Assembly (NCBI GenBank): GCA_963761305.1
Contig: CAVXGK010000002.1
Span: 1,248,001 to 1,312,000, forward strand
DNA from: an uncultured Gemmatimonadaceae bacterium
GTDB taxonomy: Bacteria; Gemmatimonadota; Gemmatimonadetes; Gemmatimonadales; Gemmatimonadaceae
DNA length: 64,000 nt
Direction: 5' to 3'
This document shows, piece by piece, positions 1-18,477 of this stretch; the stretch's first letter is position 1; the number at the start of each line of letters is the position of its first letter. The translations under genes and the position numbers were made by a program. Below the pieces are notes generated by a model. It did no database searches, was not told the DNA's origin, and saw only the letters and a list, made by a program, of their open reading frames with translations.

Positions 1-50
1 AAAGTGCTGACGCGAAGTTACGTGACGATGACCACACCATTACGGCGCGG

Positions 51-1025
51 TTAAGATGGGGGCGCCGACGACGCTTCGCTCCCAGAATCCGGCGGCTCGT
101 CCCCACGGAGCAGGGCCTCCAGTGCGCTCCGTTGGGCCGCGATTTCGGCCGCGCGGTCGGCGGCGATCAGCGCGGCCATGCGACGACGGTCGCGCTGCAC
201 GCGCGCCAGGTACAACGGGAGAATGATCAACAGCAGCAACAGTCCGCCCAGCGTGACGTCGCCGATCAATGCTAGGCCGCCGTAGCGCCGGCGCGTCTGT
301 CGCTGCCACCGCTGCTCGAACTCCGCCATCGTGATGCCGTACGTCGAGCGCACGGCGCGCTCCATCGTGCCCTGCGTCCGCCACGCCTCGAAGAACCTCG
401 ACAATCCGTGCGCCGTGTCGAGCGATGCCAATTGATCCACCGCGCCGTACGCGAGCGCGTAGGCGGTCTGCGCGGTCGTCGCTCCCTCGGTGAACTCGCT
501 GTCGAGCTGATCGAAGGTCGGTGCTCCCTTGATCGCCAGCGCTACGTTCGCCGCGAGCGCGTCGTCACGACCCGTCTCGCGCGCCGCGAAGGTCGCATAG
601 CCCTCGTCGAACCAGCGCGGCGGGAGGTCGTCGAGGTATTCGTGCAGCGCGAGGTGGGCCAGCTCGTGGCGAAGGACGGCGCGCGGATCGCCGGCGTCCG
701 CTCCCGCCGAGCGTCCCTGCATCACGATCCGGCGCGAATCGGGAAAGGCCACGGCTGCGCCCCACTCCGGAGCGCGCGGGCCCACCCACTCGCGAAACCG
801 GCGCTTGTCGGGCGCGATCGCCAACAACACGCGCTGCGTCGGCCGCGGCAATCCTGGAAACGTGTCGTTCGCGATGGAGAGCGACACGAGCGACTGCGCG
901 AGCGTCTGCTCGCTCGGATAGAACACCGCGGTGAATCGGCCCCGGTCCAGACGGAGCGGCGCGTCCTGCGACGTCGCGCGCGACGGCCAGCCGATTCCAC
1001 AGAGCGCGATCGCCGCCACGGCCAT
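51..1025 (-). CDS. Peptidase MA-family (gluzincin-like) exported protein with C-terminal membrane anchor
   Basis: HELAH zinc motif followed by WFDEG; signal-like N-terminus MAVAAIALCGIG; hydrophobic GGLLLLLIILPLYLA near the C-terminus. Start placed at ATG 1025 (CTG 1043 possible); the ORF-track start at 1169 overlaps the upstream gene. Confidence 0.75.
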   Translation of the reverse strand: MAVAAIALCGIGWPSRATSQDAPLRLDRGRFTAVFYPSEQTLAQSLVSLSIANDTFPGLPRPTQRVLLAIAPDKRRFREWVGPRAPEWGAAVAFPDSRRIVMQGRSAGADAGDPRAVLRHELAHLALHEYLDDLPPRWFDEGYATFAARETGRDDALAANVALAIKGAPTFDQLDSEFTEGATTAQTAYALAYGAVDQLASLDTAHGLSRFFEAWRTQGTMERAVRSTYGITMAEFEQRWQRQTRRRYGGLALIGDVTLGGLLLLLIILPLYLARVQRDRRRMAALIAADRAAEIAAQRSALEALLRGDEPPDSGSEASSAPPS

Positions 1026-1039
1026 CGCGCGGCGAAGGT

Positions 1040-1915
1040 TCAGGGCACGCCGCCCGCGGCCACCGTTTCGATGGCCTCCGCGCACCGCTTGCCCCACGGA
1101 TTGAACTTGTTCGCGGAGAATCCGGCCTGCCACGTCGACGTCGCCTCGTGACGCTGCGAGTTGAACCAATACGCGCGGCCGAGCTCGAAGTACGCTTCGA
1201 TCAGGTTCGGCCCCAACGCGACGCTCTTCTGGAAAAACGTCTGCGCGTCCTCGAACATCTCCCGCTCGAGGTAGACCAGTCCGAGATAGAAGTGCGCGTA
1301 CAGCGTCGCCTTCTTGTCGTTGTCGAGCCTGATCGCCCGCGACAGATGCTCGATCGCCTCTCCAAAGATACGCTTCTTCAAGCAGATGTAGCCGAGGTTC
1401 ACGCGGGCCAGCGCGTTCATCGGCTCGCGCACGAGCACGCGCTGAAAGCTGACCAACGCGTCGTCGTAGCGGTCCTGCAGCATGAGCGACCAGCCGAGCA
1501 GCGACTCCGCCTGCGCATCACCCGGCGACAGTTCGAGCGCCTTCTTCAGGAACGTGTCGGCTTCGGCGTATTCGCCCGCCGAGATCCTGTGCCACCCCTT
1601 CTCGATGTACGTCGACGCGCCGAGATGGTCGCTGTGCACGGCGCTGTGCACGGCGTCGTGCACGGCGGGCTTGGCGCCGTCGAGATGCGGCGCAACGCCG
1701 CCGCTGTTGGCGCGAACGCCCTTCCACTTCTCGACGAGCGCGAGGACCTCCTCGCGCAGCACACCGAGCTGCTTGTACTCGGCGTCCACTGTCTTGAACA
1801 GCACGCCGATGTCGGCCTTGAGCGCGTCGAGCTTGGCGCCCGCGTCCGGTTCGTCGAGTCGCGCGTCGAGCAGCGCGCGCCGCGCGCGCAACCCGTCCAA
1901 CGATGCCTCCGCCAC
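1040..1915 (-). CDS. Tetratricopeptide repeat protein with N-terminal coiled coil
   Basis: Several TPR units (AESLLGWSLM, ARVNLGYICL, AHFYLGLVYL, AYFELGRAYW); GTG start with GGGAG upstream. Confidence 0.85.
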   Translation of the reverse strand: MAEASLDGLRARRALLDARLDEPDAGAKLDALKADIGVLFKTVDAEYKQLGVLREEVLALVEKWKGVRANSGGVAPHLDGAKPAVHDAVHSAVHSDHLGASTYIEKGWHRISAGEYAEADTFLKKALELSPGDAQAESLLGWSLMLQDRYDDALVSFQRVLVREPMNALARVNLGYICLKKRIFGEAIEHLSRAIRLDNDKKATLYAHFYLGLVYLEREMFEDAQTFFQKSVALGPNLIEAYFELGRAYWFNSQRHEATSTWQAGFSANKFNPWGKRCAEAIETVAAGGVP

Positions 1916-1918
1916 CGA

Positions 1919-2418
1919 CTACGCTCCCCCCCCCCGTCCTGGTCCCAGCTCTGCGCGCCGTGCTCGACGACGATGCGGTCCGCGTTCCACATGACGCGGT
2001 CCACGTCGAGCACGACGACGAGCTGGTCGCGCACTTTCGTCACGGCGCGGAGCACGTCCGTCGCCACGCCCTTGAACAGCGCGGGCGGCGGCGACATCGA
2101 CTCCGCGGGGACGACGGCGACTTCGAGCACCGCGTCGACGATCGCGCCGACGCGCCCGCTGCTCGTGTTGAGGACCAGCGTGCGCGTCTCTGGCGTGATC
2201 GTCGTTTCGGCCAGCTCGATGCGGCGGCGCAGGTCGATCACCGGAATCACTTCGCCGCGATGCTCGGTCACGCCCTCGACCCACTTTGGCACGTCGGGAA
2301 CGCTGTTGGGCGGCGAGTAGCGCAGCACGCGGTCGACCGACAGCACGTCGGCGGCGAACAAATCCACGCCGAGCTGAAAGACGACCAGTTTGACGCCGGC
2401 GACTTTGTCGTTCTTCAT
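1919..2418 (-). CDS. cheW: CheW chemotaxis coupling protein; apparent frameshift in a 3' G10 tract (as sequenced the frame runs to 1546)
   Basis: CheW pattern LVVFQLG...VPDVPKWVEGVTEHRGEVIPVIDL...VGAIVDAV...VVLDVDRV. A TAG at 1919-1921, just before the next gene, is reached only with G8 or G11. Confidence 0.85.
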
Positions 2419-2885
2419 GGTTTCTCTCCTGTCGGCGTGGCCAGCACGCCGTCGAGCAACGCGTCCACGTCGACCACCCCGATCAGCTCCGAGCCGCGCC
2501 GCACGAGTCCGACCAGCGCGCCGTCCGCGCCGTCGCTCCCGGGCACGCCGCGCAGCTCCGATTCAGCGATCGAGAGCGCGTCGTAGACGTCGTCGACGGC
2601 AAGACCGATGCGGTGTGCGCCGCCGCGCCGGGTGAACACCAGCGTCGCGCCCGGATTCACGCGCGCGTCCGCGGTTCCGCTCCGCGCTCCGAGCAGCGCG
2701 AGCGGGTCGTAGACCGAAAGCAGGTCGCCGCGCAGCGTCGTGACGCCGCGCACGTGTTCCGGAGCATCGGGCATTCGCTGGAGCTCGGGCGATTCGATCA
2801 CCTCATCGACCGCGGCAAGCGAGACCGCGAACCGCTCGCCGCCAACCCGGAAGACGAGAACCCGCGCTACGCCGTCACGGAACAC
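2415..2885 (-). CDS. cheW: CheW chemotaxis coupling protein
   Basis: VLVFRVGGERFA...MPDAPEHVRGVTTLRGDLLSVYD...IGLAVDDV; ATGA overlap with the next cheW. Confidence 0.88.
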   Translation of the reverse strand: MFRDGVARVLVFRVGGERFAVSLAAVDEVIESPELQRMPDAPEHVRGVTTLRGDLLSVYDPLALLGARSGTADARVNPGATLVFTRRGGAHRIGLAVDDVYDALSIAESELRGVPGSDGADGALVGLVRRGSELIGVVDVDALLDGVLATPTGEKP

Positions 2886-3945
2886 GGTGCACCTCCGTCG
2901 CCATCATTTGCCCGATGAGTCGGCCGATGTCGGGCAGCGGCGCGACGCAGTCGGCGCCGGCCGCCTGGAGCGCGGCGCTCGGCATGCCGAAGATCGTCGC
3001 CGTCTCGCGATCCTGAATCACCGCGCGTCCGCCGACGGCGCGAATCGCGCGCGTTCCGTCGGCGCCGTCGCGACCCATGCCGGTGAGCACCACCGCGAGC
3101 GTCGACGATCCGAACACGCGCGCCGCCGACTGAAAGAGCATGTCCGCGGCCGGCCGCACGCCCCAGACGGGCGGAAGCTCGTCGAGCGTAATCACCGGTC
3201 CGTCGCCATCGTCGCGCACCGTCATGTGGCGGCCGCCCGGCGCGACGTACACGCGTCCATGCACGACCGGTTCGTCCTGTTCGGCTTCCGCGATGCGAAC
3301 GGCGCTCATCGAGTCGAGCCGCTGCGCGAAACTCTTGGTGAATCCGCGCGGCATGTGCTGCACGACGAGCACCGCGGCGGGGAGCGAACGATGCAGGTGC
3401 GGCACGATCGCGGCCAGCGCGCGCGGTCCGCCGGTGGACGCCGCGATGACGACCGCGCTCGACGCCGCCGCGCCGACGAGCGTCGGCCGCTCGACGACGA
3501 TCGGCGTGCGCCGCTGCAGCTGGCGGAGTCCGGCCGGATTCGCCGCGATGGCGGCGCGCAACGCCTCGAGCAATCGCGGCGAGATCGTCGCGAGGTCGAG
3601 ACTGATCTTTCCCGACGGCTTGAGGACGAAGTCGACGGCGCCCAGCTCCAACGCGCGCAGTGTGGCCGCCTGGCCGCCGCTCGTCGTGCCGGCGCTCAAC
3701 ATCACGACCGGGCGCGGCGACTCGCTCATGATGTAGCCGAGCGCGGTCAGCCCGTCGAGCTCCGGCATGTCCACGTCGAGCGTGACGACGTCGGGATTGA
3801 GGGCGTGCACGAGGCCCAGCGCTTCGTACCCGTTGCGCGCGACGCCGGCAACCTCGAACTCGCCCGAGGCCTCGAGGATTTGCGAGATCAGCCGCCGCAT
3901 GAAGGCGCTGTCGTCGACGACGAGGACGCGGCGTTTAGAGGACAC
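2875..3945 (-). CDS. cheB: CheB response regulator protein-glutamate methylesterase
   Basis: Receiver domain (VVDDSAFMR, VTLDVDMP, FVLKP) plus methylesterase triad motifs ASTGG, VQHMP, GMGRDG. Confidence 0.96.
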   Translation of the reverse strand: MSSKRRVLVVDDSAFMRRLISQILEASGEFEVAGVARNGYEALGLVHALNPDVVTLDVDMPELDGLTALGYIMSESPRPVVMLSAGTTSGGQAATLRALELGAVDFVLKPSGKISLDLATISPRLLEALRAAIAANPAGLRQLQRRTPIVVERPTLVGAAASSAVVIAASTGGPRALAAIVPHLHRSLPAAVLVVQHMPRGFTKSFAQRLDSMSAVRIAEAEQDEPVVHGRVYVAPGGRHMTVRDDGDGPVITLDELPPVWGVRPAADMLFQSAARVFGSSTLAVVLTGMGRDGADGTRAIRAVGGRAVIQDRETATIFGMPSAALQAAGADCVAPLPDIGRLIGQMMATEVHRVP

Positions 3946-4432
3946 GCGACCCCTTTCGCACGGAGCGAACCTCGACGCGACCGTCCGTCAGGTAGAAATA
4001 GACGCTGCGGCCGTAGTCGCTCCCCGTATCTTCGCCGACGAGCTCGATGCGGGATTTCGCGAGCGCCGAGCGCACCGCGGCGACGTTGCGCTCGCCGATG
4101 TTGATGCCGCCCACCGTGGCGAAGTTGCTGCCGAACATGCTCGCGCCGCCGGCGATCTTGGCGCGGATACGATTCGGAACGGCGCCGAGCTTTTTCATCT
4201 GCTCCAGCACGAGCGGGACCGCCGTCGCCGGGAACTTGGCCGGATTCGAGCGGTCGCGCGACATCGACTCGCTCGGCAAGAGCACGTGCGCGAGTCCGCC
4301 GACGCGCGCCACCGAGTCGTACAGCACGATCGCCACGCAGGAGCCGAGGCCGACGGTCGTGATCAGACCGTCCGACGCCACCGCATAGTCGGCGACCTTG
4401 ACCCGGACTTCCGCGAAGGAATCGGCGATCAT
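3935..4432 (-). CDS. cheD: CheD chemoreceptor glutamine deamidase
   Basis: TVGLGSCVAIVLYD...GGLAHVLLP (catalytic Cys/His), AKIAGGASMF, IGERN, EDTG. ATG 4432 overlaps the cheR stop (ATGA). Confidence 0.94.
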   Translation of the reverse strand: MIADSFAEVRVKVADYAVASDGLITTVGLGSCVAIVLYDSVARVGGLAHVLLPSESMSRDRSNPAKFPATAVPLVLEQMKKLGAVPNRIRAKIAGGASMFGSNFATVGGINIGERNVAAVRSALAKSRIELVGEDTGSDYGRSVYFYLTDGRVEVRSVRKGSRVL

Positions 4433-5250
4433 CGGCGGCGGAACACCCGTTCGCGCGCGTCCACCGCGGCGAACTTCGCGCGCGACGGGCCCAGCACGGT
4501 TTCGACCTTGCCGAGCACCAGGAAGCCGCCCGGCGCCAGCGCGTCGTGGAACGCGTCGAAGAGACGAATCTGCGTGTCGCGATCGAAGTAGATGAGCACG
4601 TTGCGGCACGCGATCAGGTGCAGCGGTCCGCGCGGCGCCGGAGCGGCCAGCAGATCACGATTCTCGAATCGCACCATCGTTCGCACGGTCGGCGACACGG
4701 TCAACGGCGGCGTCGCCGAGAAGTAGCGCGCCCGCAGGTCGTCCGGCGTGTCGGCGAAGTCGGACTCGGAGAACTGGCCGTGCCGCGCGGCGATCAGCGA
4801 TCGGCGGTCGATGTCGGTCCCGAGCACGTCGACGCGGCTCAAGCGCGACAACTCGCGCCGCTGTTCGGCGTGGCGATGAAAGAGGATCGCGAGCGAGTAG
4901 GGCTCGTGGCCGGAGGAACAGCCGGCGCTCCAGACGCGAATCGTCGAGAGCGGCGCCGACCACAGCGTCGGCACGACGTGCGTCGCCATCGCCCGATAGA
5001 CGTCCCAGTTCCGGAAGAGCTTCGTGACGTTGATCGTGAGAACATCGAGCAGGCGCTCGTACTCCGACGCGTCGCTGTCGAGCACGCGCGAGTACTCGCC
5101 GTAGGTGTTCACGCCGCGCGCGCGCATGCGCACGGCGATGCGCCGCTGCAGGCACTTCTCCTTGTAGCTCGCGCAGCCGAAGCCGCGCTCGACGGAGATC
5201 TTGCGTGTCAGCGCGAGAAAATCGCCGGCCCCCGAGGCTCGGTCGACCAT
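4429..5250 (-). CDS. cheR: CheR chemoreceptor methyltransferase
   Basis: TINVTKLFRN, WSAGCSSGHEPYS, GTDID, CRNVLIYF. ATG 5250 in a TGATG overlap. Confidence 0.95.
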   Translation of the reverse strand: MVDRASGAGDFLALTRKISVERGFGCASYKEKCLQRRIAVRMRARGVNTYGEYSRVLDSDASEYERLLDVLTINVTKLFRNWDVYRAMATHVVPTLWSAPLSTIRVWSAGCSSGHEPYSLAILFHRHAEQRRELSRLSRVDVLGTDIDRRSLIAARHGQFSESDFADTPDDLRARYFSATPPLTVSPTVRTMVRFENRDLLAAPAPRGPLHLIACRNVLIYFDRDTQIRLFDAFHDALAPGGFLVLGKVETVLGPSRAKFAAVDARERVFRRR

Positions 5251-6869
5251 CAGTAGGCCTGCCGAACGGACTCGAGGTTCGATCGAACGATGGCGTTGTC
5301 GGGGTCGAGCTCGAGCGCCCGCTCCCAACATCGCAACGCTTCGTCCCGTTCCTGCCGCCGCAGGCGGATGTTCCCGAGCTTGAGATACGTGTCCGGACCG
5401 ATCTCCGGATTGGCGCGCGTGGCCCGCGCGTAGGCTTCGAGCGCTTCGTCGTACCGCGCGGCGCGGTACCGGAGGTCGCCGATGTTCTTGTGCAGATGCG
5501 CGACGCCGGCGTCCTCGTGGAGCCCGCGCTCGGCCGTCGCGAGCGCGGCGTCGTACTCGCCCAATCGCTCCTGGACCGCGGCGAGGTTGTTGTGCAGCGT
5601 GGCGGCGTGTGGATACGCCGTTACGCCGTCAGTGAGGATCGACGCGGCGCGCGGCGCATCACCGACGAGCGCCGCGGCGAGGGCCGCGAAGTGGAACCAG
5701 GCGGCCGTGGGCGGCTTCCGCCCGAAGAGCCCGCGCGCGCCGGCGAGCGCGGCGTCGGCGGCCGAGAGGTCGCCGGTGAGAAGACACACGACGCCGAGCG
5801 ACGTTTGAATGCGCGCGTCCTTGCCGCCGCCGCGCGCGATGGCGTCGTTCAGCGCGGCGCGCGCTTCGTCGTAGCGGTGCTGCTGCTCGAGCACGAACGC
5901 GAGGTTGTGGAACACCGCCGGCTTCGCGTCCAGGCGCGTGACGCATTCCTTGAACGCGGCCGTCGCTTCGTCCCACTTCGCCTGGCGGGCGAGCACGAGC
6001 CCGACGTAGTAGCGCGCCGCCGCGTCGCCGTCGCGCAGCTCGATCACGCGGCGGAACTCGCGCAGCGACTCGTCGAACATCCCCGTCTTGAAGAACGCGA
6101 TCCCGAGGTTGCGATGCTCCTCGGCGCGTCCGTGCGCCGCGACGGCCGGAGCGGGCGCCGTCTTGCCGATGCGATGGATGAAGCTCGCGTTCACCAGCCC
6201 GAGCAGCGCCTTGCCGACCTCGAATTCCACGAGCCCCGACGCGTCGATGATCCCCTGCACGTCGCGCATGCCGTCGACCAGCTCGAGGACGCTCGTCTGT
6301 TCCTCGGTCAACTCGGCGTCGCTCGTCAGGACGCGGTTGCGATTGATCTCGAATACGAGATCGAAGCTTGGGATTTTTTTTTCGACGAGGCTCCACTCGT
6401 CGACCCGGCGCGCCCCCTCGAGCAGCAGCGACTCGGGGGTGATCGACACGATGTAGTCCTGTCCTTCGGGCACGACGTCGGCCTCGAAGTTGAACGTCCC
6501 TTGGTGCCAGGTGAACAGGAAGTAGACGGCCTCGCGAATCTGCACGTCCACCGCCACGCGCAACTGGTCGGGCGAGACGATGCCCTGCTCCACGAGGATC
6601 CGCCCGAGCGGCGTGTCGAGGCGCTTGGCCTGCGCGTCGAGCGCGGCGTCGAGCTGCGCCTGCGTGACGCCCCCGCTCTTCACGAGACGGTCGCCGAGCC
6701 GGTCGCGGCGATTCACGACCGACGCGTAGCAGATCCGCCCCTTGTCGAAGTAGATATAGCCGAAGCTGGCCCGGTGCGTGATGCTCAGGCAGCCGGTCTT
6801 CTTGCCCATCGCGAGGAGTTGGAGAACGTCGGGGAGGCTCGCCTCCTTGAGGTTGCCGCGGATCGCCAT
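5250..6869 (-). CDS. DUF4388 (PatA N-terminal-like) domain protein with MshEN-like insert and C-terminal TPR repeats
   Basis: N-terminus MAIRGNLKEASLPDVLQLL...KTGCL, WHQGTFNF, LLLEGARRVDEW typical of DUF4388; RLGDRLVKSG...LGRILVEQG insert; many TPRs. Confidence 0.85.
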   Translation of the reverse strand: MAIRGNLKEASLPDVLQLLAMGKKTGCLSITHRASFGYIYFDKGRICYASVVNRRDRLGDRLVKSGGVTQAQLDAALDAQAKRLDTPLGRILVEQGIVSPDQLRVAVDVQIREAVYFLFTWHQGTFNFEADVVPEGQDYIVSITPESLLLEGARRVDEWSLVEKKIPSFDLVFEINRNRVLTSDAELTEEQTSVLELVDGMRDVQGIIDASGLVEFEVGKALLGLVNASFIHRIGKTAPAPAVAAHGRAEEHRNLGIAFFKTGMFDESLREFRRVIELRDGDAAARYYVGLVLARQAKWDEATAAFKECVTRLDAKPAVFHNLAFVLEQQHRYDEARAALNDAIARGGGKDARIQTSLGVVCLLTGDLSAADAALAGARGLFGRKPPTAAWFHFAALAAALVGDAPRAASILTDGVTAYPHAATLHNNLAAVQERLGEYDAALATAERGLHEDAGVAHLHKNIGDLRYRAARYDEALEAYARATRANPEIGPDTYLKLGNIRLRRQERDEALRCWERALELDPDNAIVRSNLESVRQAY

Positions 6870-6903
6870 CAGCCCCTCCGCGACGCGCGCGATCGGATGT
6901 GGC

Positions 6904-8826: not shown

Positions 8827-8839
8827 GATCGACCCGCCG

Positions 8840-10081: not shown

Positions 10082-10428
10082 GCGAGCATCTCCAGCGCCT
10101 TGAACAGCTCCACCCGAATCAGCCCGACGTTCGCCGCGGGGTCGGCAACGGTCACGATCACCAGGTCGTTCCCTCCGCCCGCCACGCAAATGCAACCGCG
10201 CTCCGCGTCGAGCTGCAGGAACGTCACCGCTCCGAGCCGCGCCGCCTGCGCCGACAACCGCGCCTTGCGATACACGGACGCGGCGAGCGCCGCGACACGC
10301 TCGCCGTCCTGGCCAAAACGGAGACTGGAATCGATGACGAGCCCGTCACTCTCGGAGACGATCAAGCTCGCCCGCACGCCACGCTGGCGAGTCAGCACAT
10401 CGAGCACGGGCCGCATGGACGTGCTCAC
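10078..10428 (-). CDS. Roadblock/LC7 domain protein
   Basis: GVRASLIVSESDGLVI...VAALAAS...ANVGLIRVEL; GTG 10428 in GTGA overlap. Confidence 0.85.
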   Translation of the reverse strand: MSTSMRPVLDVLTRQRGVRASLIVSESDGLVIDSSLRFGQDGERVAALAASVYRKARLSAQAARLGAVTFLQLDAERGCICVAGGGNDLVIVTVADPAANVGLIRVELFKALEMLA

Positions 10429-11288
10429 GGCGCGCCCGCGCCGTCGATTCGCCCGTCGCGAAGCCACGCCGAGGCCCGCGCGGCGCACCGGTCGAGCAGG
10501 CGCCGCAGGAGCCCGAGCGGCGTGACCTTCGACGCCGCGACGACGAGGAGACCGCCGTCGTCGCTCCGCGTCATCGCCACGACGCTCCCACGCGTCTCGA
10601 ACGTGATCGACTGCCACTCGCCGACGTCCAGATACTTCGTCGATCGCTGCACTTCGTCGGAGATTCCGCTCAACTGTGCGCCGACGTCCTGCGACAAATC
10701 GGCGCCGTTGGCGTCGACGTACACGCCGCCCAGCACCAAGCCGCTGGCGTCGAGCAGGAGCGCCGTCTGCCCCTCCTCGGTCAGCAGGCTCGCGAAGAGA
10801 CGCCGCGGATCGTTCGACGACGCGGGTGGCGCGAACGCGCTCGTTTGCGGAGAAGGCACCGCCTCATCGGGCACAGCCACGTGGGTGCCAGACGCCCGCC
10901 GCACCGTGCGCAGCGCGCCCGCGACCGAGGCCCCCCCGCCGCCGCTCGCCGCGGCGCCGGTCAAATACCGCTCGGCGTCGTCGACGCGACCTTCCTGAAA
11001 GCTGAGATATCCGAGTCCCTTCATCGCCCCCGCGTGATCGGGAACGATTCGAAGCACGGCGTTCCATTCGTCGCGGGCGCGCGCGAGGTCGCCGCGATCG
11101 ACCGCGACGCGCGCGAGTAAGTCGTGCGCGTCCGCGTTGTGCGGGTGCCGCTCGAGCCCGCGCAGCGCGACTTTGCTCGCGAGCTCGAACTGTCGCTGCC
11201 GGCGCAGCGCGTCGCCAAGCTGAAGGAACACCAGGCTCCCCGGCTCGCGCGCGAGCTCTTCGCTCCAGCGGCGGATGTCGTCAACCAT
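10425..11288 (-). CDS. TPR + roadblock/LC7 fusion protein
   Basis: N-terminal TPRs (FLQLGDALRR, AHDLLARV, AMKGLGYL); C-terminal roadblock (ALLLDASGLVL...VGAQLSGI...TPLGLLRR). Start at ATG 11288. Confidence 0.8.
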   Translation of the reverse strand: MVDDIRRWSEELAREPGSLVFLQLGDALRRQRQFELASKVALRGLERHPHNADAHDLLARVAVDRGDLARARDEWNAVLRIVPDHAGAMKGLGYLSFQEGRVDDAERYLTGAAASGGGGASVAGALRTVRRASGTHVAVPDEAVPSPQTSAFAPPASSNDPRRLFASLLTEEGQTALLLDASGLVLGGVYVDANGADLSQDVGAQLSGISDEVQRSTKYLDVGEWQSITFETRGSVVAMTRSDDGGLLVVAASKVTPLGLLRRLLDRCAARASAWLRDGRIDGAGAP

Positions 11289-12225
11289 TGGCGTGCACCT
11301 CGAGCACCCGCTCGAGTCGCGCGAGCGCGTCGAGCGCGTCGCGCGCTTCGAGGGCGACGGTGCCGGCCGGCTCACGGCGCAGCAGCTGCTCGACCGCGTG
11401 GCGGGCGGCGCTCACGTGTGCGGCGACGCCAGTCGGCGGCGAACCAGTGGGCGACCACGCTCGCGCCCGCGCGACGGCGGATGGTTCGACGTTCTTTCGA
11501 ATCGTGACGACGCCGGTCGTGGCCAGCCCATACGCGATCTTGGCCGTCTCGAACTCGTCGCGGGTCAGCAGCGCGGCGATCGCGCGCAGGTCGCGCTCGC
11601 CGTCGATCATCGTCAGGACCTGCCACTCGTGCGGGAGCAGGTCGAGCGTCGTGCCGCCGTCGTGCTCTTCGCCCATCGGTGCAAGCTCGGGCACGACGTT
11701 CAGGCTCGGCACCACGTCGGCGATGCGCGACCATTCGTCGATGCGCCGCGCGCCTTCCATGAGCAGGGATTCGGTCGAGACGGCGATGCGCGGGTCGCGC
11801 GGCATCTCCTCACGCGCGCGTTCTTCGAACGAGAAAAACCCCTCGCGCCACGACATCAGCTCGAATACCACGCTCTCGATCTGCAACCGCAAGTGCCGCT
11901 CGAGCTCGCGCTGGGTGATCGCCCCGAGGCGAACGAGCGAATCGACGATGGTCCGCGCACCCGCGACCCCATTGCCCTCGGTCGACGCGTGCGCGCGATC
12001 GAGATCGGCTTGCGTGATCCGCCCCGCCTCCAGCAATACGAGCTCCGTCGGCACGCTCTTGCTGCGGATCGACGCGTGCACGACGCGGCCGCCGTCGAAG
12101 TGGACGACGCCCTCGTCCTCGCGCAGCTTCGACGATACGCACAGGAGTCCCGTCTTCCGGCTCAGGTCGAGCAGCTGGAAGACGTCGTGGATGCCGAGCT
12201 CGCGAAGCGGACCTTCGATCGCCAT
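11281..12225 (-). CDS. DUF4388 domain protein
   Basis: MAIEGPLRELGIHDVFQLL...KTGLL, WREGFFSF, LLMEGARRIDEW; paralogue of 5250-6869. Confidence 0.85.
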   Translation of the reverse strand: MAIEGPLRELGIHDVFQLLDLSRKTGLLCVSSKLREDEGVVHFDGGRVVHASIRSKSVPTELVLLEAGRITQADLDRAHASTEGNGVAGARTIVDSLVRLGAITQRELERHLRLQIESVVFELMSWREGFFSFEERAREEMPRDPRIAVSTESLLMEGARRIDEWSRIADVVPSLNVVPELAPMGEEHDGGTTLDLLPHEWQVLTMIDGERDLRAIAALLTRDEFETAKIAYGLATTGVVTIRKNVEPSAVARARAWSPTGSPPTGVAAHVSAARHAVEQLLRREPAGTVALEARDALDALARLERVLEVHANG

Positions 12226-12227
12226 GG

Positions 12228-14987
12228 TCAGCCCGTTCGCAGCGTGAGAATGTGCTGCAGCTCGGAGGCGCTGCGCAGATCGCGACGCGCGCGCCGAGCG
12301 AACGACGATGCGGGATCGAGCGCGATCACGCGGCGCCAGCGTTCGGCCGCCTCGCGGAAGCGGTGCTGTTCCGCCAGCAACGCGCCCTCGAAGTACAGCG
12401 CGCCGACGTTCCCCGGATCGAACCGCAGCACCCGCGCGAACGCATGGCTCGCGTCGCGCCGGCGATCGAGCTCGATCAGCGTCTCACCGAGCGCGATGAG
12501 CGCGTCGAAGTTGTACGGATCGCGCTCCAGCATTTCGATCAGCAGCGGCATGGCGTCGCTCGGGCGACTCAGCCGGCGTCGAAGCGCCGCGAGCGCGAGC
12601 GTCGCTTCGGCGTAGGTCGGCACCGCGTCGAGCGCCGCGACCAACTCGTGCTCGGCTTCGCGATCGCGGCCTTGCGACTGCAACAGATCCGCGAGCCGGA
12701 AGCGCACGACGGCGAAATCCTCGTCCACCTCGAGCGCGAGCCGGTACATCTCGATCGCGCGGTCGATGTCGCCGATCGACTGCGCGATGTCGCCCGTACG
12801 CAGCAACACGTCGGCCCGCCGCGGCGAGATCCGCCGCGCACGGTTGAGCAGCTCGAGCGCCGCCACCGGATCGCCGGAATCCGCGCACGCCTCCGACGCG
12901 AGCATCAGCGCGTCGACGTCGTTCGCGTCCCGCGCCACCAACAGCTGCGCGATCGGACGCGCCTCGGCCCCGCGCCCCAGTCGCAGGAGCGCCATCGCCT
13001 CGCCGGCAAGCGCCTGCGGACGATCCGGAACGATCGCCAGCGCAGCGCGAAAGCGCTCCAGCGCTTCGCCGAACAAGCCCTGTTTCGCGAAGATCTCGCC
13101 GAGGATCGTCATCCCCATGGCGCGGTCCTCGCCGCGCGCCAGCGCGCGCGCGACCTCGGCCGACGCCCGGTCGAAGTAGCCCTTCGACAAGTAGTCCGCC
13201 GCCATCGCGAACGGCGACCGGTCGCTCGCGCGCCGCGCACGCGGCCGCTCGGACTCTTCTTCGCTCGATGGTTTCGCATCCGGCGCCGCTGTGGTGGCCG
13301 GCGCCGACTCGGCCGGCGCGGCGGGCGCCAGCTCCGTGAACAGCGTGTCGAGAGAGCCGGGATCGAAATCGAAGTCCTCGACGACCGCGTCCTCGTGCGC
13401 GCCGCCGAGGTCGGGCGGCACCGTGAGGTCGGGGTCTTCGTACTCGACGTCCATCGCCAACTCGAACTTCTGCGCCACGTAGTACGGTTCCAGCTCGAGC
13501 GCGCGCTTGGTTTCGCGCAGCGCGCCCTCGAAGTCGCCGAGATTCGAGAGCGTGAAGCTCATGTTGTAGTGCGCTTCGGCGAAGTCGGGTCGCGCCTGGA
13601 TCGCGCGCGCGAAGGCGCCGCGGGCGTCGTCGTACCTGTGGAGCTCGGCGAGCACGAGGCCGACGCCGTTCCATGCTACCGGATGCTCGGCCGCCGAGCG
13701 CAACACGCGGCGATACGACTCGAGCGCGTGCTGGAATCGCTTGGCGCGGCTCATGAGCAGCGCCAGGTTGAGACGCGCCTTGACGAATTCGGGCCGATGC
13801 TCGAGCGCCGCGTTGAACGCGGCGAGCGAGTCCTCCGATTTTCCGCTGTGGTAGAGCGCCACGCCGAGGTTGTTCCGTGCGATCGCGTACGACGGCTCGG
13901 CGTCCAGCGCGCGCCGATAGCTCGACTCGGCGTCGGCGAAGCGTCCTTCCTGGTGCATCGCCACGCCGCGCTCGTTCCACAGCTTGGGGCTGTGCGGCTG
14001 GCGGCGCAGCAGATCGTCGTACAGCCCGATCGCCTCGCCGGGTTGGCGCAACAGCAGATGCACTTCGGCCATCGCCTGTAACACGAGGTCGCGGTCTTCG
14101 CCCCGGTCGAGCGCGACGCCGTACTCGCGCATCGCTTCGGCGTAGTAGCCCTTGCTGCGGAACGCGAGGCCCAGGTTGTAGTGCGCGAGCTGTCCGTCGA
14201 CCGACACCTGCAGCTCTCGCTTCGGCTGGCCGTTCGCCGCGTCGCGGCCCCGCTGTTGCTCGAGCGACAGATTCGCGTGCGCGCGCGACAGCGACGGATT
14301 CAGCTTGATGGCGCGGCGCGTGGCCGCCTGCGCGTCCTCGTGGCGTCCGATGTCGCCGAGGACGAAGCCCATCAGGTACAGGGCGTCGTGGTTCTCCGGA
14401 TTCAACGCGATCGCGCGCTCGAGTGCGCGCAACGCGTCGTCGTTCAGGCCGCGGTGATAGAGGATCTCGCCGAGCGTGAAGTGCAGCAGCGAGCTGTCCG
14501 GATCGCGGGCCAGCGCGCGTTCGATGCATTCCTGCGCGCGCTCCATGTCGCCCGAGTGCTTCTCGGCGAGCGCGAGCTGCAGCAGGGCCGCGACGTCGTT
14601 CGGCGCGTACTCGAGGAGGGCGCGGAACTCGTTCGCTGCGTCGTCCTGCTTGCCGAGCAGCGAGAACGTGCGGCCCAACTCCCAGCGCGCTTCGCGGTCG
14701 TCGGGCCGGGCCCGGAGACGCTCGCGCAGCTCGGGCACCCGTGTGTCGTAGTAGCCGGTGTTGAAGTACGCGATCTCGAGGTTGCGCTGCGCGACCTGCA
14801 TCGTGTGGTCGAGCTCGAGCGCCTTCATGAAGGCGGCGACCGCCTCCTGATACAGCCCCTTGTTGTAGTAGAGAACGCCGAGGTTGTTGTGCGCGCCGGC
14901 GTCCGACGGATCGATCCGCCGGGCGAAGGAGCGAAGGACCTCGCGGTCCCGCTCCGACGTCAGTGGGGCCGGCGGGATCATGATCAC
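12228..14987 (-). CDS. Large TPR-repeat protein
   Basis: Many TPRs (AHNNLGVLYY, AHYNLGLAF, ARNNLGVAL, AWNGVGLVL) in two blocks separated by an acidic/Pro-Ala linker; GTGA overlap with the cheC stop. Confidence 0.9.
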   Translation of the reverse strand: MIMIPPAPLTSERDREVLRSFARRIDPSDAGAHNNLGVLYYNKGLYQEAVAAFMKALELDHTMQVAQRNLEIAYFNTGYYDTRVPELRERLRARPDDREARWELGRTFSLLGKQDDAANEFRALLEYAPNDVAALLQLALAEKHSGDMERAQECIERALARDPDSSLLHFTLGEILYHRGLNDDALRALERAIALNPENHDALYLMGFVLGDIGRHEDAQAATRRAIKLNPSLSRAHANLSLEQQRGRDAANGQPKRELQVSVDGQLAHYNLGLAFRSKGYYAEAMREYGVALDRGEDRDLVLQAMAEVHLLLRQPGEAIGLYDDLLRRQPHSPKLWNERGVAMHQEGRFADAESSYRRALDAEPSYAIARNNLGVALYHSGKSEDSLAAFNAALEHRPEFVKARLNLALLMSRAKRFQHALESYRRVLRSAAEHPVAWNGVGLVLAELHRYDDARGAFARAIQARPDFAEAHYNMSFTLSNLGDFEGALRETKRALELEPYYVAQKFELAMDVEYEDPDLTVPPDLGGAHEDAVVEDFDFDPGSLDTLFTELAPAAPAESAPATTAAPDAKPSSEEESERPRARRASDRSPFAMAADYLSKGYFDRASAEVARALARGEDRAMGMTILGEIFAKQGLFGEALERFRAALAIVPDRPQALAGEAMALLRLGRGAEARPIAQLLVARDANDVDALMLASEACADSGDPVAALELLNRARRISPRRADVLLRTGDIAQSIGDIDRAIEMYRLALEVDEDFAVVRFRLADLLQSQGRDREAEHELVAALDAVPTYAEATLALAALRRRLSRPSDAMPLLIEMLERDPYNFDALIALGETLIELDRRRDASHAFARVLRFDPGNVGALYFEGALLAEQHRFREAAERWRRVIALDPASSFARRARRDLRSASELQHILTLRTG

Positions 14988-15601
14988 GCGACGTGGATCG
15001 CCTTGAGGATGGCGCCGAGCGACGCCGTGTCGGGAAGCAGCAGGAAGAAGCCGCGCAGCTTCTCGTCGGACTGGTTCAGCACGAAGTCGCTCTCGACGCA
15101 GAAGACGAAGTCACGGTCCCCGCCGAACTGGAGGTACGCCGTCGTGAGCACGGCGTCGGACATGTCGATCGCCAGCGCCGGCGGCGACGGAATGAGCATC
15201 ATGCCCATGAAGTCGCTCAGCGCGTTCATGTAGGCGGAGCTGAGGATGTTGCCCGCTTCCTTGATCGCCGACTGCTGCATGTCGGAGAAGTCGTCGCTGG
15301 GCTCGCGGCGGTGCAGCAGCAGCTCGGCGAGCCGCATCGCGGTGCGCCGCGGGAACACGAGCAGCGTGCGGCCCGTGAGATCGCCGAGCATGTGCATCAG
15401 CACCGCGGCCACCGGCTCGTCCGGCGTCGTGATGTGCGGCGGCACCTCTTCCAGGCGCGCGACGCTGATTTTCGGCACGCTGATCATGATCGTCTCGCCG
15501 ATCATCTGCGACAGCGCCGTCGCCGCGTGGCCGGCGCCGATGTTGGCCACCTCGCGGAGCGCGTCGAGCTGCAGCGCTTTCAACGAAAGAAGATCTTCCA
15601 T
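14984..15601 (-). CDS. cheC: CheC CheY-P phosphatase
   Basis: Two E-x2-N active-site motifs (DALREVANIG, SAIKEAGNIL); AGGA SD upstream. Confidence 0.93.
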   Translation of the reverse strand: MEDLLSLKALQLDALREVANIGAGHAATALSQMIGETIMISVPKISVARLEEVPPHITTPDEPVAAVLMHMLGDLTGRTLLVFPRRTAMRLAELLLHRREPSDDFSDMQQSAIKEAGNILSSAYMNALSDFMGMMLIPSPPALAIDMSDAVLTTAYLQFGGDRDFVFCVESDFVLNQSDEKLRGFFLLLPDTASLGAILKAIHVA

Positions 15602-15610
15602 ATCAATCCT

Positions 15611-17623
15611 TTAAAGGAGGCTGCTGACGTCGACGATGAGCGAAGGCCGGCCGTCGCCGAGGAGCGTGGCGCCCCCGAAGAACGGCGGTCCGTCTCGCAC
15701 CGCGTCGTACTGCTTCACGACGATCTCTTCCTGTCCGGTGAGCTCGTCGATGACGAGCCCCGCCCGGCGATCGCCGAGGTCGATCACCACCACGTGCTCG
15801 AGGTCGATCTCCGTCGGCGGGTCGTACGCCGGCAGCCCGACCAACGACCGCAGCCGAAGCAGCGGCAGCACTTCGTCGCGCGCGAGCAGGACTTCCTTGC
15901 CCTTCACCGTGCGCAGCACGTCGGGCGTCAGCTCGACGGTCTCGCTCACGTGGGCCTGCGGGATCGCGTACGTCTCGCCGCCGACCCGCGCCAGCAGCGC
16001 GCGCATGATGGCCAGCGTCAACGGAAGCCGGATCACCACCGTCGTTCCCTGCCCCGGCACCGAGCGGATGTCCATCGCGCCGCCGAGCGAGCGCACCTTC
16101 GTGTAGACCGCGTCCACGCCGACGCCGCGCCCCGACAATCCCGTCACCTGCTCCGCCGTCGAGAACCCCGGCCGCGCGAGCAGCCGGAGCAGCTCGTCTT
16201 CGGTGAGCTCGGTCTTCGTCGGTTCGACCAGCCCGTCGCGCTTGGCGCGCTCGAGGACGCGCTCGCGGTCGATGCCCTTGCCGTCGTCACTGACCTTGAT
16301 CACGACCGCCGAACGGTCGCGCACCGCGCTCAAGACGAGACGGCCCACGGCCGGCTTGCCGAGAGCGGCGCGAACGTCGGGACGCTCGATGCCGTGGTCC
16401 ACCGCGTTGCGCAGCAGATGGACCAGCGAGTCTGCGATCTCGTCGAGCATCGACCGATCGAGCTCGATGTCCTTGCCTTCGACGACGAAGTCGACCGGCT
16501 TGCCCAGCCCGCGCGACGCGTCGCGCACGACGCGCGGAAACCGGTCGAACACCTGCGACACCGGAATCATGCGGCTCGCCGTGATCTCGTCGCGCAGATC
16601 GGTGATGAGGCGCGACGACTGCATCACCGCCTCTTCCAGCGCGAGATCGCCGAGCTGGCCGGCGAGCTGCGTCAGACGGCCGCGCGCGATCACCAGCTCG
16701 CCGATGAGATTCATCAGCGCGTCGAGGCGCCGCACGTCGATGCGCATCGAGCGCACGCGGCCGCTCTCCGACCGCGTCTCGCTGGCCGGCGTCACGGCCA
16801 CGCCGTGCGCCGGCGTGAGCGTCATCGCCGACAACGCCGCCATGTCGTGCGCCGGCGTCATGGTGATCGCCGGCATGCTCCACGACGGCGTCAGCGCCGG
16901 CCACGCGCCGGAGCGACGCGGTTCGCCGACCTGCACCTCGAGCACGTCGCCCATTCCCCGCACCACGCTCTCGATCTCGGTGGACGAGCACGACGCGGCA
17001 AGGCGGACGGTGAACTCGGTGTCGAAATTTTCGGCCTGGAGCTCGATGAGCGGCGGCGTCGTCGACACGACCTCACCGATCGAGCGCAGCGCCTGCACGA
17101 TGAGGAACGCGCGCACGCCGCGCAGCGGCGTCTCCGGCTTGAGCCAGATGCGCACCGCTTCGCCGGTGCCGGACGGCGACACCAGGGAGTCGTCGGTCGC
17201 GGCGGGAATCGCCACGGTCTCGCGCCGCGCGGCGGGAGTGGTCGTCAGCGCGCGCAGCGCGGTGATGAGGTCCGGTGCGACGACGTCGCCTTCATGCCCC
17301 GCGACCGCCGCCTCGACCGCGTGCTCGAGCACGTCGGCGGAGCGGAACAGCGTGTCCATGATCGTCGCTTCGATCGACAGCTCGCCGCGGCGCACGCAGT
17401 CGAGCACTGTCTCGAGCTCGTGCGCGAGATCGGCGACGACGGTATAGCCCATCGTCGCCGCCATTCCCTTGATCGTGTGGACCGAACGGAAAATCGCGCC
17501 GACCGCCGATGCGGCGTCGGGGCCGGTCGCATCGCGCTCCAGCTGGAGCAGCGATTGGTTGACGGCGGCGACGTGCTCTCGGCTCTCGGTGAGAAAGAGC
17601 TGGGCGTACTCGCGATTATCCAC
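15611..17623 (-). CDS. cheA: CheA chemotaxis histidine kinase
   Basis: Hpt FRSVHTIKG, P2 domain, LMNLIGELVI, HLLRNAVDHGIE, DDGKGID, GRGVGVD, C-terminal CheW domain. Confidence 0.97.
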   Translation of the reverse strand: MDNREYAQLFLTESREHVAAVNQSLLQLERDATGPDAASAVGAIFRSVHTIKGMAATMGYTVVADLAHELETVLDCVRRGELSIEATIMDTLFRSADVLEHAVEAAVAGHEGDVVAPDLITALRALTTTPAARRETVAIPAATDDSLVSPSGTGEAVRIWLKPETPLRGVRAFLIVQALRSIGEVVSTTPPLIELQAENFDTEFTVRLAASCSSTEIESVVRGMGDVLEVQVGEPRRSGAWPALTPSWSMPAITMTPAHDMAALSAMTLTPAHGVAVTPASETRSESGRVRSMRIDVRRLDALMNLIGELVIARGRLTQLAGQLGDLALEEAVMQSSRLITDLRDEITASRMIPVSQVFDRFPRVVRDASRGLGKPVDFVVEGKDIELDRSMLDEIADSLVHLLRNAVDHGIERPDVRAALGKPAVGRLVLSAVRDRSAVVIKVSDDGKGIDRERVLERAKRDGLVEPTKTELTEDELLRLLARPGFSTAEQVTGLSGRGVGVDAVYTKVRSLGGAMDIRSVPGQGTTVVIRLPLTLAIMRALLARVGGETYAIPQAHVSETVELTPDVLRTVKGKEVLLARDEVLPLLRLRSLVGLPAYDPPTEIDLEHVVVIDLGDRRAGLVIDELTGQEEIVVKQYDAVRDGPPFFGGATLLGDGRPSLIVDVSSLL

Positions 17624-17650
17624 GGCGCTTGGGTCGCACGCGGACCGTGC

Positions 17651-18013
17651 TCACCCGAGCACGCGCTGCACCGCCTCGAGGACGCGACTGGGTTGGAACG
17701 GCTTGACGACGAAGTCCTTCGCGCCGGCTTGAATCGCTTCGACGACGAGCGCCTGCTGCCCCATGGCGCTGCACATGAGGATTTTCGCGCCCGGGTCGAA
17801 CTTGCAGATCTCGCGCACGGCATCGATGCCGCCCATGTCGGGCATCACGATGTCCATGGTCACGAGATCCGGCCGCAGCTCCCGGTACTTCTCTACCGCT
17901 TGAACGCCCGTCTCGGCCTCGCCGACGATCTCGAACCCGGCTTGGGTGAGAATGTCGCCTACCATCGTGCGCATGAAGATGGCGTCGTCGCAGACCAGTA
18001 CTGTGTGACTCAC
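17651..18013 (-). CDS. cheY: CheY response regulator (Bacillus/Thermotoga-like)
   Basis: Single receiver domain: CDDAIFMR, TMDIVMP, CSAMGQQ, FVVKPF; GGAGG SD. Confidence 0.95.
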   Translation of the reverse strand: MSHTVLVCDDAIFMRTMVGDILTQAGFEIVGEAETGVQAVEKYRELRPDLVTMDIVMPDMGGIDAVREICKFDPGAKILMCSAMGQQALVVEAIQAGAKDFVVKPFQPSRVLEAVQRVLG

Positions 18014-18033
18014 GGGAACATGCCTCCAAAGAC

Positions 18034-18477
18034 CTAGGACAGCAGGACTTGCCGGATGAGAGCGGCGAGATCCAACACGACCACCGGTGCACCGTCGAGC
18101 ATCGCCACACCACGCACGAGATCCCCAGCCGCTTCCGTGGCGCCCGAGCCATCGATCTCGAGCTGCCGCACGTCGGCGACCTCGTCTACCACCACCCCGG
18201 CCAAGCGGTCGCGGTGGCGGACGAGAAGAATGGATCCCTCCGCGGCGGGCTCGGCTGACGGATCGAGCCGGACCCCCAGGTCTAGTATCGTCACGATCGT
18301 GCCGCGGACGTTGAGCAGACCGCGCACGAACGCGGGAGCTCCTGGGAGTCGGGTGATCGCTCCCATTGGGATGAGCTCTCTGACGTCTTCTCCGTCGGCC
18401 GCAAAGACCGTTTTCCCCGCGCGGAACATCAGCGCGGAGGTCAACGTGCCATCAGGGGTCGACGCGATAGAAGTCAA
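18034..18477 (-). CDS. cheW: CheW chemotaxis coupling protein
   Basis: ITRLPGAPAFVRGLLNVRGTIVTILDL...GVVVDEV; start uncertain (TTG 18477 overlaps the rluD end). Confidence 0.88.
   Translation of the reverse strand: MTSIASTPDGTLTSALMFRAGKTVFAADGEDVRELIPMGAITRLPGAPAFVRGLLNVRGTIVTILDLGVRLDPSAEPAAEGSILLVRHRDRLAGVVVDEVADVRQLEIDGSGATEAAGDLVRGVAMLDGAPVVVLDLAALIRQVLLS

Follow-up and report, generated by a model that had tools for sequence, protein, structure and literature searches.

What might a bacterium steer with a chemosensory pathway if its genome shows no sign of a flagellum? The question is raised by a run of 19 co-directional genes on the minus strand at positions 51-18477 of a stretch of 64,000 nucleotides from an uncultured soil Gemmatimonadaceae bacterium (NCBI assembly GCA_963761305.1, contig CAVXGK010000002.1, positions 1,248,001 to 1,312,000); we call this whole stretch the window. 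Genes for a Che-type pathway lie on either side of a block that encodes the small GTPase MglA, its partner MglB, and an ATPase made of two DnaA-type modules. In this conserved, operon-like string the only Che pathway of the genome is wrapped around an MglA/MglB module. By analogy with other bacteria, we think there is about an even chance that it steers the polarity of type IV pili, not flagella.

Gene order across the Gemmatimonadota

Genes were called from G+C content by codon position and then by Pfam and NCBIfam scans of the minus-strand open reading frames (ORFs), and their starts were refined against orthologues. The G+C content of the region is 68-70%, and the codon-position pattern indicates real genes on the minus strand. 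An earlier note on this DNA had described 19 co-directional and mostly overlapping genes, with the che genes split around a block of TPR, DUF4388, roadblock, MglB, MglA, and DnaA-like genes. The scans recovered all 19 on the minus strand, and the domain calls agree with the split. The order is cheW-cheY-cheA-cheC, the embedded block, cheR-cheD-cheB-cheW-cheW, and finally a TPR gene and a metallopeptidase gene. The block runs from a large TPR protein of 919 amino acids (aa) through PATAN (DUF4388), TPR-roadblock, roadblock, mglB, mglA, and the tandem DnaA-type ATPase to a PATAN-TPR protein. With refined starts, 11 of the 18 junctions overlap (this count includes two probable artefacts), and the remaining gaps are 2-34 nucleotides (nt), save for 120 nt between mglB and mglA.

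Is this arrangement peculiar to one genome? We compared 96 loci: the best 80 of 179 relatives in a collection of species genomes, all of which come from Gemmatimonadota or from bacteria without a name, and 16 stretches from a sample of the phylum that were chosen to cover distant and complete genomes. The earlier note had tied its proposal to gene order being kept in relatives, and it is kept: 45 of the 46 loci that span the full cluster, all from Gemmatimonadota, are colinear, and in the one that is not, the receiver domain of CheB was labelled as CheY. The order persists even where the ATPases are just 30-35% identical. Of these 46 loci, 44 hold the whole non-che core, and 39 also hold CheY, CheA, CheC, CheD, and CheB, with the two che halves flanking the module in the same order. 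The gene string is thus real, and it is strongly conserved throughout the clade; because its order is conserved, across an order-level clade, a chance arrangement is excluded.

The counts for single genes take in only those loci with enough flanking DNA. PATAN-TPR lies directly downstream of the ATPase in all 85 loci, and MglA lies upstream of it in 86 of 87 (the exception is locus L099). MglB is present in 80 of 84 loci (not in L092, L093, L099, or L106), the peptidase in 62 of 63 (not in L100), and a 291-aa TPR protein also in 62 of 63 (not in L101), loci without che genes included. The 919-aa TPR gene is found in 58 of the 59 loci with at least 9 kb of upstream sequence. As for the che genes, CheA is present in 52 of 59 loci (not in L049, L051, L052, L054, L057, L084, or L099), CheR in 54 of 63 (nine exceptions), CheB in 57 of 63 (six), and CheD in 59 of 63 (four). 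CheY is 81-95% identical across the relatives that bear cheA.

There are four architectures. The first is the full cluster. The second, in six loci, is without che genes except for a CheY-like gene that is 68-75% identical; because of these six related loci, we conclude that the Mgl/ATPase block can stand alone. The third, in one genus of the same family with single-contig genomes (G065, G101, and G134; seen directly in G065 and G101), is without roadblock/mglB and cheR. The fourth, in L099, is minimal: the corresponding site, following ileS-rluD, has just the ATPase, PATAN-TPR, the peptidase, and a receiver gene. Searches of five che-less genomes turned up no CheA in four of them (the completeness of those genomes is not known). 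Che-less versions with a CheY-like receiver gene were seen at L048-L052, L054, L057, L084, and L099. What stays constant, therefore, is a core of ATPase, PATAN-TPR, and peptidase. MglA is almost always there too, and the che genes are an optional input.

How far does the family reach? The ATPase has at least 120 close sequence clusters (71-93% identity, 636-647 aa). Where an organism is given, it is Gemmatimonadaceae or Gemmatimonadetes, and most of the named rows carry only DnaA as a function name. Among 10 distant, full-length clusters that were looked up (31-52% identity), an organism is given for two, both Gemmatimonadales. In the Atlas, among the matches listed, 8 of 10 clusters, including all six of tandem length, are commonest in Gemmatimonadota. 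Both the few distant members with a name and the Atlas clusters thus point to Gemmatimonadota. Twelve runs share words with positions 4300-14200 of the window, with a word share of at most 0.40; they are of soil or metagenome DNA, and none is of RNA.

The Che pathway and flagella

The genome is 5.21 Mb in two contigs and is 93% complete. The upstream che half begins with a cheW (18034..18477, on the minus strand like all genes of the cluster; 147 aa; Pfam CheW 3e-28), whose TTG start runs 26 nt into the end of the upstream rluD-like gene. Next is cheY (17651..18013, 120 aa), a single-domain response regulator (Response_reg 2.5e-30). Its sequence reads DD at 9-10, D54, and K104, which we take to be the residues of the phospho-acceptor site. 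The cheY of the earlier note is this ORF and not an overlapping one of 178 aa. The kinase gene cheA (15611..17623, 670 aa) encodes Hpt, P2, H-kinase_dim, HATPase_c, and CheW domains, and cheC (14984..15601, 205 aa; Pfam CheC 4.6e-22) encodes a CheY-P phosphatase. The downstream half consists of the methyltransferase gene cheR (4429..5250, ATG at 5250, 273 aa; CheR 8.7e-47), the deamidase gene cheD (3935..4432, ATG at 4432, 165 aa; CheD 7e-31), the methylesterase gene cheB with a receiver domain (2875..3945, 356 aa; CheB_methylest 3.5e-60; NF001965 at 376.8 bits, with a cut-off of 293), a second cheW (2415..2885, 156 aa; CheW 3.5e-24), and a third (CheW domain at aa 11-143, 2.4e-29). The cluster therefore holds a CheA with Hpt, dimerisation, HATPase, and CheW-like domains, a CheW, and a CheY, and also all of the adaptation enzymes CheR, CheB, CheD, and CheC. 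The earlier note had likened the CheC/CheD/CheY set to those of Firmicutes and Thermotoga. The best NCBIfam models fit this (CheC_Thtogales 1.3e-48, CheD_Thtga 9e-41, and CheY_Halo 1.2e-38), all of them below the cut-offs for equivalogs.

Two HAMP-MCP receptor genes lie elsewhere in the genome. Searches with the cluster proteins (tblastn) found a single CheA, in agreement with one H-kinase_dim match, and no second CheA, CheW, CheR, CheD, CheC, or PATAN gene in the genome. We suppose that the two membrane receptors would form arrays with the three CheW proteins and CheA, that CheR, CheB, and CheD would provide adaptation, and that CheC would reset CheY-P.

The earlier note had expected an output other than the flagellar switch, and the genome agrees. 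It has no FlhA match over the cut-off, and no match at all to FliG_C or Flagellin_N, in searches that each recovered its family in four flagellated reference genomes. Because there is one CheA and no match to FlhA, FliG, or flagellin, we conclude that the output here is not flagellar. A relative from the same genus (G129) has no FlhA match either.

To what extent does this hold across the phylum? We searched a sample of 151 Gemmatimonadota genomes with four queries. The tandem ATPase was matched in 97 genomes (21 of 31 in family f1, 68 of 72 in f2, and 0 of 11 in f10); the weakest matches include a few, among them G122, that probably represent true DnaA. FlhA was matched in 39 (13 of 31, 13 of 72, and 11 of 11 in the same three families), and the dimerisation domain of CheA in 104. 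The ATPase and FlhA occur together in 22 genomes, and about 75 of the 97 carriers have no FlhA match. Among the 22, 12 have at least two CheA. In G065, G134, G101, G010, G043, G120, G094, and G097, one CheA is 18-61 kb from flhA and another is in the cluster. G138 and G146, which are also flagellated carriers, have a single CheA on another contig.

These results bear on the simplest alternative, which is that the cluster is an ordinary flagellar chemotaxis operon with separate genes inserted, and that it survives as a relic in lineages without flagella. The CheC, CheD, and CheY set does resemble those of flagellar pathways of the Thermotoga/Bacillus type, and of the 22 carriers with FlhA, 9 have only one CheA that we could find. 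However, this genome has none of the flagellar matches just listed, G129 is without FlhA, and so are most carriers, while in most of the flagellated carriers there is an additional CheA close to flhA. A relic is also hard to square with 19 genes that are all intact and translationally coupled and with the high identity of CheY wherever che genes are present, and the same order of the che halves around the module in 39 of 46 full-span loci is unlike random insertion. We consider this explanation highly improbable. The cluster may have a flagellar role in some flagellated relatives, while in this genome and in most carriers the pathway is clearly non-flagellar. In most sampled members without flagellar genes it is the only Che pathway, and because of this it is probably their means of responding to gradients.

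The embedded block

If the output is not a flagellum, what is it? The block between the che halves is our best guide. The product of mglA (8840..9469, 209 aa) is, from its sequence, a Ras-like GTPase of the MglA family: its match to Myxococcus xanthus MglA (5ymx) has E 3.2e-74, spans residues 1-197, and takes in the P-loop GPGxxGKTT. Adjoining it is mglB (9590..10081, 163 aa), which is weak in Pfam and matches M. xanthus MglB (6hjm) with E 1.8e-12; its product is an MglB-type roadblock partner and a predicted GTPase-activating protein. Two more roadblock proteins are encoded alongside. One has 112 aa (10078..10416; Robl_LC7 3.3e-9; PDB roadblock 9jue_D 3.1e-6) and is a possible MglC-like partner. 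The other, of 287 aa, joins TPR and roadblock/LC7 domains (10425..11288, ATG at 11288; TPR_16 4.7e-13; Robl_LC7 2.8e-5). In the mechanism that we propose, MglA-GTP and MglB, together with the two extra roadblock proteins, would serve to mark which pole leads and which one lags.

The 919-aa TPR protein (12228..14987; TPR families, for example TPR_2 1.4e-80) would then be an SgmX-like scaffold or MglA effector, as we infer by analogy. In Myxococcus, according to the part of PMC11580455 used here, MglA recruits SgmX, which has 14 TPRs and carries PilB to the leading pole. In the same role, the 919-aa protein would bring the extension ATPase to one pole.

The cluster does not hold the only Mgl pair of this genome. 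A second mglB-mglA pair was seen on the other contig at C1:234806-235927 (positions 6804-8171 of locus L118, minus strand) in a housekeeping context of dnaX, recR, mglB, mglA, and a CDP-alcohol phosphatidyltransferase gene. The second MglA is 50% identical to the cluster copy and is closer to Myxococcus MglA (E 4e-83). As far as sequence comparison goes, the mglA of the cluster is a paralogue.

Pili are our candidate for what such a module would act on. The genome has three genes of the PilT family over the NCBIfam cut-off, a PilB-like gene that adjoins one of them, and PilM. The outputs listed in the earlier note were pili, gliding, polar growth, and budding, and we infer that pili are the best reading among these. 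We also saw that the families that carry the ATPase mostly have 3-5 PilT-family paralogues per genome vs 1-2 in most others, a pattern that follows kinship, and that G114, which has a minimal version of the ATPase and belongs to family f7, has four.

Several observations weigh against pili. The PilT family was matched in 146 of the 151 genomes in the sample (31 of 31 in f1 and 72 of 72 in f2), every ATPase carrier among them, and a family that almost all members of the phylum possess cannot tell carriers from the rest. The cluster and its flanks contain no pilus gene. The likeness of the 919-aa protein to SgmX extends to the type of repeat and no further, and control of pili could belong to the second mglBA pair instead. 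Flagellar pathways typically have CheC and CheD. Nine flagellated carriers show a single CheA, and in at least six of them (G029, G048, G021, G105, G124, and G027) it is that of the cluster; one more (G093) shows none. Finally, the genomic position of the cluster, which we come to below, would equally suit a role in division or growth.

How would the signal pass from the Che pathway to the module? The two PATAN proteins may be the link. One is a 314-aa protein (11281..12225; DUF4388 3.3e-29) and the other is PATAN-TPR (5250..6869, 539 aa; DUF4388 3e-39); with PF14332 (DUF4388/PATAN) they score 101.8 and 134.3 bits, with a cut-off of 25. Neither has a Response_reg domain, and tblastn showed no PATAN gene in the genome beyond this pair. 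We propose that CheY-P would act on the embedded module, and that CheY, joined by the two stand-alone PATAN proteins, would amount to a split version of a PatA-type regulator. In Synechocystis, PATAN-REC regulators bind the pilus motor proteins PilB1 and PilC (bioRxiv 10.1101/2021.06.11.447907, in the part cited here).

PATAN-TPR has a further feature, which is an insertion (aa 55-114) inside its PATAN domain that carries a tandem pair of 24-residue MshEN-type motifs. The motif model NF053729 (c-di-GMP_motif, 1.7e-14) scores 53.4 bits with a cut-off of 38, and the motifs are conserved in 24 aligned orthologues. In a structural model of residues 1-245 (confidence score pLDDT 83), the insertion matches MshE with bound cyclic di-GMP (c-di-GMP; 5htl) at a middling Z of 7.3, with a root-mean-square deviation of 1.9 Å over 59 residues and 41% identity, and Thermus PilF GSPII-B with c-di-GMP (8pdk) at Z 6.5. 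Going by this model, the insertion is likely an MshEN-type module and is predicted to bind c-di-GMP. A Foldseek search with the PATAN model found nothing at E <= 0.001, and the N-terminal sheet had no known fold match; the structural matches that were obtained fall mainly on residues 161-242 and 55-114. In the 314-aa PATAN protein the corresponding insertion is degenerate and helical, and no NCBIfam c-di-GMP motif matches it. We did not find an MshEN motif within a PATAN domain described in the literature; PMC5013675, the paper on MshEN, names neither PATAN nor DUF4388 in its main text, and its supplementary tables of MshEN proteins may bear on this.

Residues 161-240 of PATAN-TPR were predicted to form a winged helix, whose best matches in the model are subunits of GATOR1/SEA (Z 8.8 and 8.6). 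These scores are barely above the common level, and many other winged-helix proteins match at Z 5-7. GATOR1 and SEA are eukaryotic complexes that regulate Rag GTPases.

A predicted c-di-GMP module invites another explanation, in which the output is some other polar or surface machine (gliding, an adhesin, or polysaccharide secretion) or a c-di-GMP-dependent switch between attached and free life, with MglA and the ATPase sorting the machine to a pole. The nine GGDEF matches in the genome, which indicate that c-di-GMP signalling exists, fit this explanation, as do the membrane-anchored peptidase at the end of the cluster and the control of gliding by MglA in Myxococcus (PMC4316618, in the part cited). 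But we saw no gene for gliding, secretion, or polysaccharides within the cluster or next to it (the genome was not searched for such systems). We regard this explanation as unlikely.

The ATPase itself (6904..8826, 640 aa; Bac_DnaA in two stretches, 6e-106) consists of two DnaA domain III modules, and between them is a linker of three helices (aa 256-359) that is well predicted in the model. Residues 3-237, in module 1, align to Bacillus subtilis DnaA, and the N-terminus of the protein meets the first residues of domain III. TIGR00362 aligns at positions 103-347 of its 437 only. DnaA domains I, II, and IV are absent, and there is no match to the Pfam N- or C-terminal domains of DnaA. The top Foldseek matches of the AlphaFold2 model are DnaA domain III structures, led by B. 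subtilis 8bv3 (target-normalised TM score 0.95, 44% identity); the mean pLDDT is 89.4 for the domains, and their mutual position has low confidence (pTM 0.51).

Among 61 diverse family members (28-93% identity), the Walker A lysine is kept in 61 of 61 first modules and in 52 of 61 second modules, the first aspartate of Walker B in 60 and 53, the arginine finger in 42 and 49, and the sensor II arginine in 55 and 48. After a disordered stretch, the C-terminus ends with a conserved motif EKxxWxWP (window 6904-7000), of which W628 is kept in 54 of 61. This motif resembles a short docking peptide, and the TPR proteins of the cluster could receive it. In some relatives the C-terminal part is missing or diverged, with matches that end near residue 530-543.

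We placed 22 first modules, 21 second modules, and 9 true DnaA domain III sequences in one tree, where each set forms a clean group (support 100/100, 100/100, and 99/96). Because they separate so cleanly, we conclude that the tandem has a single origin, which precedes the diversification of the family. Being unrooted, the tree does not indicate the source among DnaA proteins.

Could the ATPase still act on DNA or on DnaA, either like Hda or by binding single-stranded DNA, so that the operon couples replication control to signalling? Both modules are near DnaA domain III, as the identity and fold match to B. subtilis attest, and both keep the residues of the ATP site and the arginine finger. 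Also, the Hda model TIGR03420 gives a match of 176.9 bits, which is below its cut-off of 194.8. We rejected the identification as Hda on account of this score and because the protein is a tandem and not single. An N-terminal clamp-binding peptide was likewise ruled out, as the N-terminus aligns to the start of domain III and leaves no separate peptide. Furthermore, the protein has neither domain I nor the DNA-binding domain IV, its first and second modules each form a clean group apart from true DnaA, and its gene is always beside PATAN-TPR, almost always beside mglA, and never in a replication context. A DNA-directed role seems very improbable to us.

Instead, we propose that the tandem ATPase, with PATAN-TPR as its constant partner, would serve as an ATP-driven switch or scaffold that couples the level of c-di-GMP to the state of the polarity module. 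A stronger version is that this double AAA+ ATPase, derived from DnaA, was recruited from replication initiation and, with a c-di-GMP-sensing PATAN-TPR, is a new core component of a small-GTPase polarity switch, with the ATP cycle setting or resetting MglA polarity under chemosensory control. This is a tentative idea, and we would lean against it if we had to choose.

Position, remaining genes, and known systems

Does the surrounding DNA suggest a different role? Upstream and in the same direction are ileS, two lspA paralogues, and the rluD-like gene. Beyond position 1 of the window are a tRNA-Val gene, a gene for a 623-aa TPR protein, and then mraW-ftsL-ftsI-murE-murF-mraY-murD, the division and cell wall (dcw) genes. 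The tRNA-Val gene is just outside the window (11682-11755 of L117, which is C2:1236001-1248100), and the peptidase gene is the last one before it. A seemingly well-conserved 'orf139' on the 3' side of the peptidase gene in relatives is actually this tRNA gene. The flanks recur wherever the contig extends far enough, with the 623-aa TPR gene in 60 of the 96 loci, RluD in 49, and MraW in 21, and throughout the clade the cluster keeps its place between ileS-lspA-rluD and dcw. The two lspA (signal peptidase II) paralogues, at window 19432-20617 on the minus strand, are in tandem and overlap slightly, and the pair is kept in relatives whose loci extend that far.

This position speaks for a role in cell division, budding, polar growth, or a link to the cell cycle, in which the Che pathway and MglA would set the place or the timing of growth or division, with the DnaA-derived ATPase as a cell-cycle-like ATP switch. 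The ATPase does derive from a replication initiator, and the last gene of the cluster encodes an envelope-facing metalloprotease. On the other hand, the kept position may reflect nothing more than low rearrangement in this clade, and tRNA-Val stands between the dcw genes and the cluster. The ATPase is without the DNA-binding domain and domain I, and a normal full-length DnaA of 473 aa, with its C-terminal DNA-binding region, is encoded elsewhere (C2:3173473-3174273). Also, the MglA and PATAN systems that have been characterised act on motility machines. We think that a role in division or growth is rather improbable, and we continue to prefer the steering of pili.

The remaining genes of the cluster need some comment. 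The last cheW is an ORF of 290 aa as assembled (1546..2418) that passes a G10 homopolymer at about 1919-1935 and overlaps the next gene by 370 nt, while in relatives this cheW has 160-170 aa and its stop overlaps the next start by 8 nt. The long form is probably a read-through, with the true end just upstream of 1915, and the G10 run is either miscalled in the assembly or a tract prone to slippage. Read-through was also seen in three of five close relatives, which have long G runs; two with shorter runs end normally. After this cheW come a 291-aa protein with coiled coil and TPR (1040..1915; TPR_2 8.3e-24) and the Peptidase_MA_2 metalloprotease (51..1169; 3.7e-13), which has HExxH, a C-terminal membrane helix, and, from its sequence, a likely signal peptide. 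The start of the peptidase is probably near 1028 and not at 1169, in which case its 130-nt overlap with the preceding gene vanishes. Within positions 1-19600, one promoter-like site was found, on the wrong strand (0.9 expected), and four terminator-like sites (9.2 expected), one of which is on the strand of the genes; at 68-70% G+C these scans are uninformative.

What would it mean if we are right? Most of what is known about chemosensory control of an MglA switch comes from Myxococcus, whose genes for it are scattered and were connected to each other by genetics. Here, a comparable circuit would be laid out as one gene string in a whole clade, and the string names candidate partners: the stand-alone PATAN proteins, the extra roadblock proteins, the large TPR protein, and the peptidase. 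The Gemmatimonadota are abundant in soil and are rarely cultured; in the stronger version given above, they would have a means of steering surface motility or polar growth without a counterpart in Myxococcus, Pseudomonas, or cyanobacteria. If the DnaA-type ATPase, which lacks the domain that reads DNA, acts on polarity, then this would be a non-replicative use of the AAA+ module of the initiator. And the MshEN-type insert suggests a point at which c-di-GMP could enter such circuits, possibly also for PATAN proteins elsewhere.

How new is this? The earlier note knew of no functional description of the combination of Che, Mgl, and tandem DnaA, and our searches of the full-text literature turned up none. 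The gene link between PATAN and MglA/MglB, in contrast, is already in print: PMC4316618, in the part cited here, places Gemmatimonadetes among the lineages with group 1 MglA and some MglA genes near PATAN genes, and that part never mentions DnaA. Similarly, MglA and MglB genes lie near PATAN genes in other bacteria (bioRxiv 10.1101/2021.06.11.447907, in part).

Each component resembles something known. The insertion in PATAN-TPR shares tandem 24-residue motifs and, in the model, a helical hairpin fold with the MshEN or GSPII-B modules of MshE, PilB, and PilF, but in those proteins the module is at the N-terminus of a secretion ATPase, whereas here it is inserted in PATAN, and its binding is a prediction. 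Each half of the ATPase is, like DnaA domain III or Hda, a complete DnaA-type AAA+ module with Walker A and B, arginine finger, and sensor II; it differs in having two modules in one chain with a conserved linker, in the EKxxWxWP motif, in its lack of domains I, II, and IV, and in its setting within a signalling operon. The cyanobacterial Tax and Pix systems, with their PatA-type PATAN-REC proteins, also couple PATAN to Che-type signalling, but here PATAN is fused to TPR or, in the second copy, to a helical tail instead of a receiver, and CheY is separate. Also, the cyanobacterial systems, as described in the part of bioRxiv 10.1101/2021.06.11.447907 cited, are without MglA, roadblock proteins, or a DnaA-type ATPase.

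The cluster as a whole is comparable with the Frz/MglA system of M. xanthus (with MglB, MglC, RomR-RomX, and SgmX), which similarly combines a Che-type pathway with an MglA GTPase, MglB, a large TPR protein, and other proteins of the roadblock type. The MglA module receives signals from Frz (PMC4316618, in the part cited), but according to the same source Myxococcus mglA is not encoded near Frz or its RomR partners, whereas here everything is in one gene string. The domain scan of the cluster gave no counterpart of RomR, RomX, or FrzZ, and nothing in it is RomR-like by architecture (RomR and RomX were not searched for as such). Our cluster includes CheC, CheD, and a CheY of a single domain in its che set, and this set comes with two PATAN proteins, the tandem DnaA-type ATPase, and the peptidase, which are not reported for Frz in the parts of the work cited. 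As a probable MglA-polarity switch under chemosensory control, then, we regard the cluster as a new variant of Frz-MglA-type control, while the ATPase, with its PATAN-TPR partner, may be new in kind.

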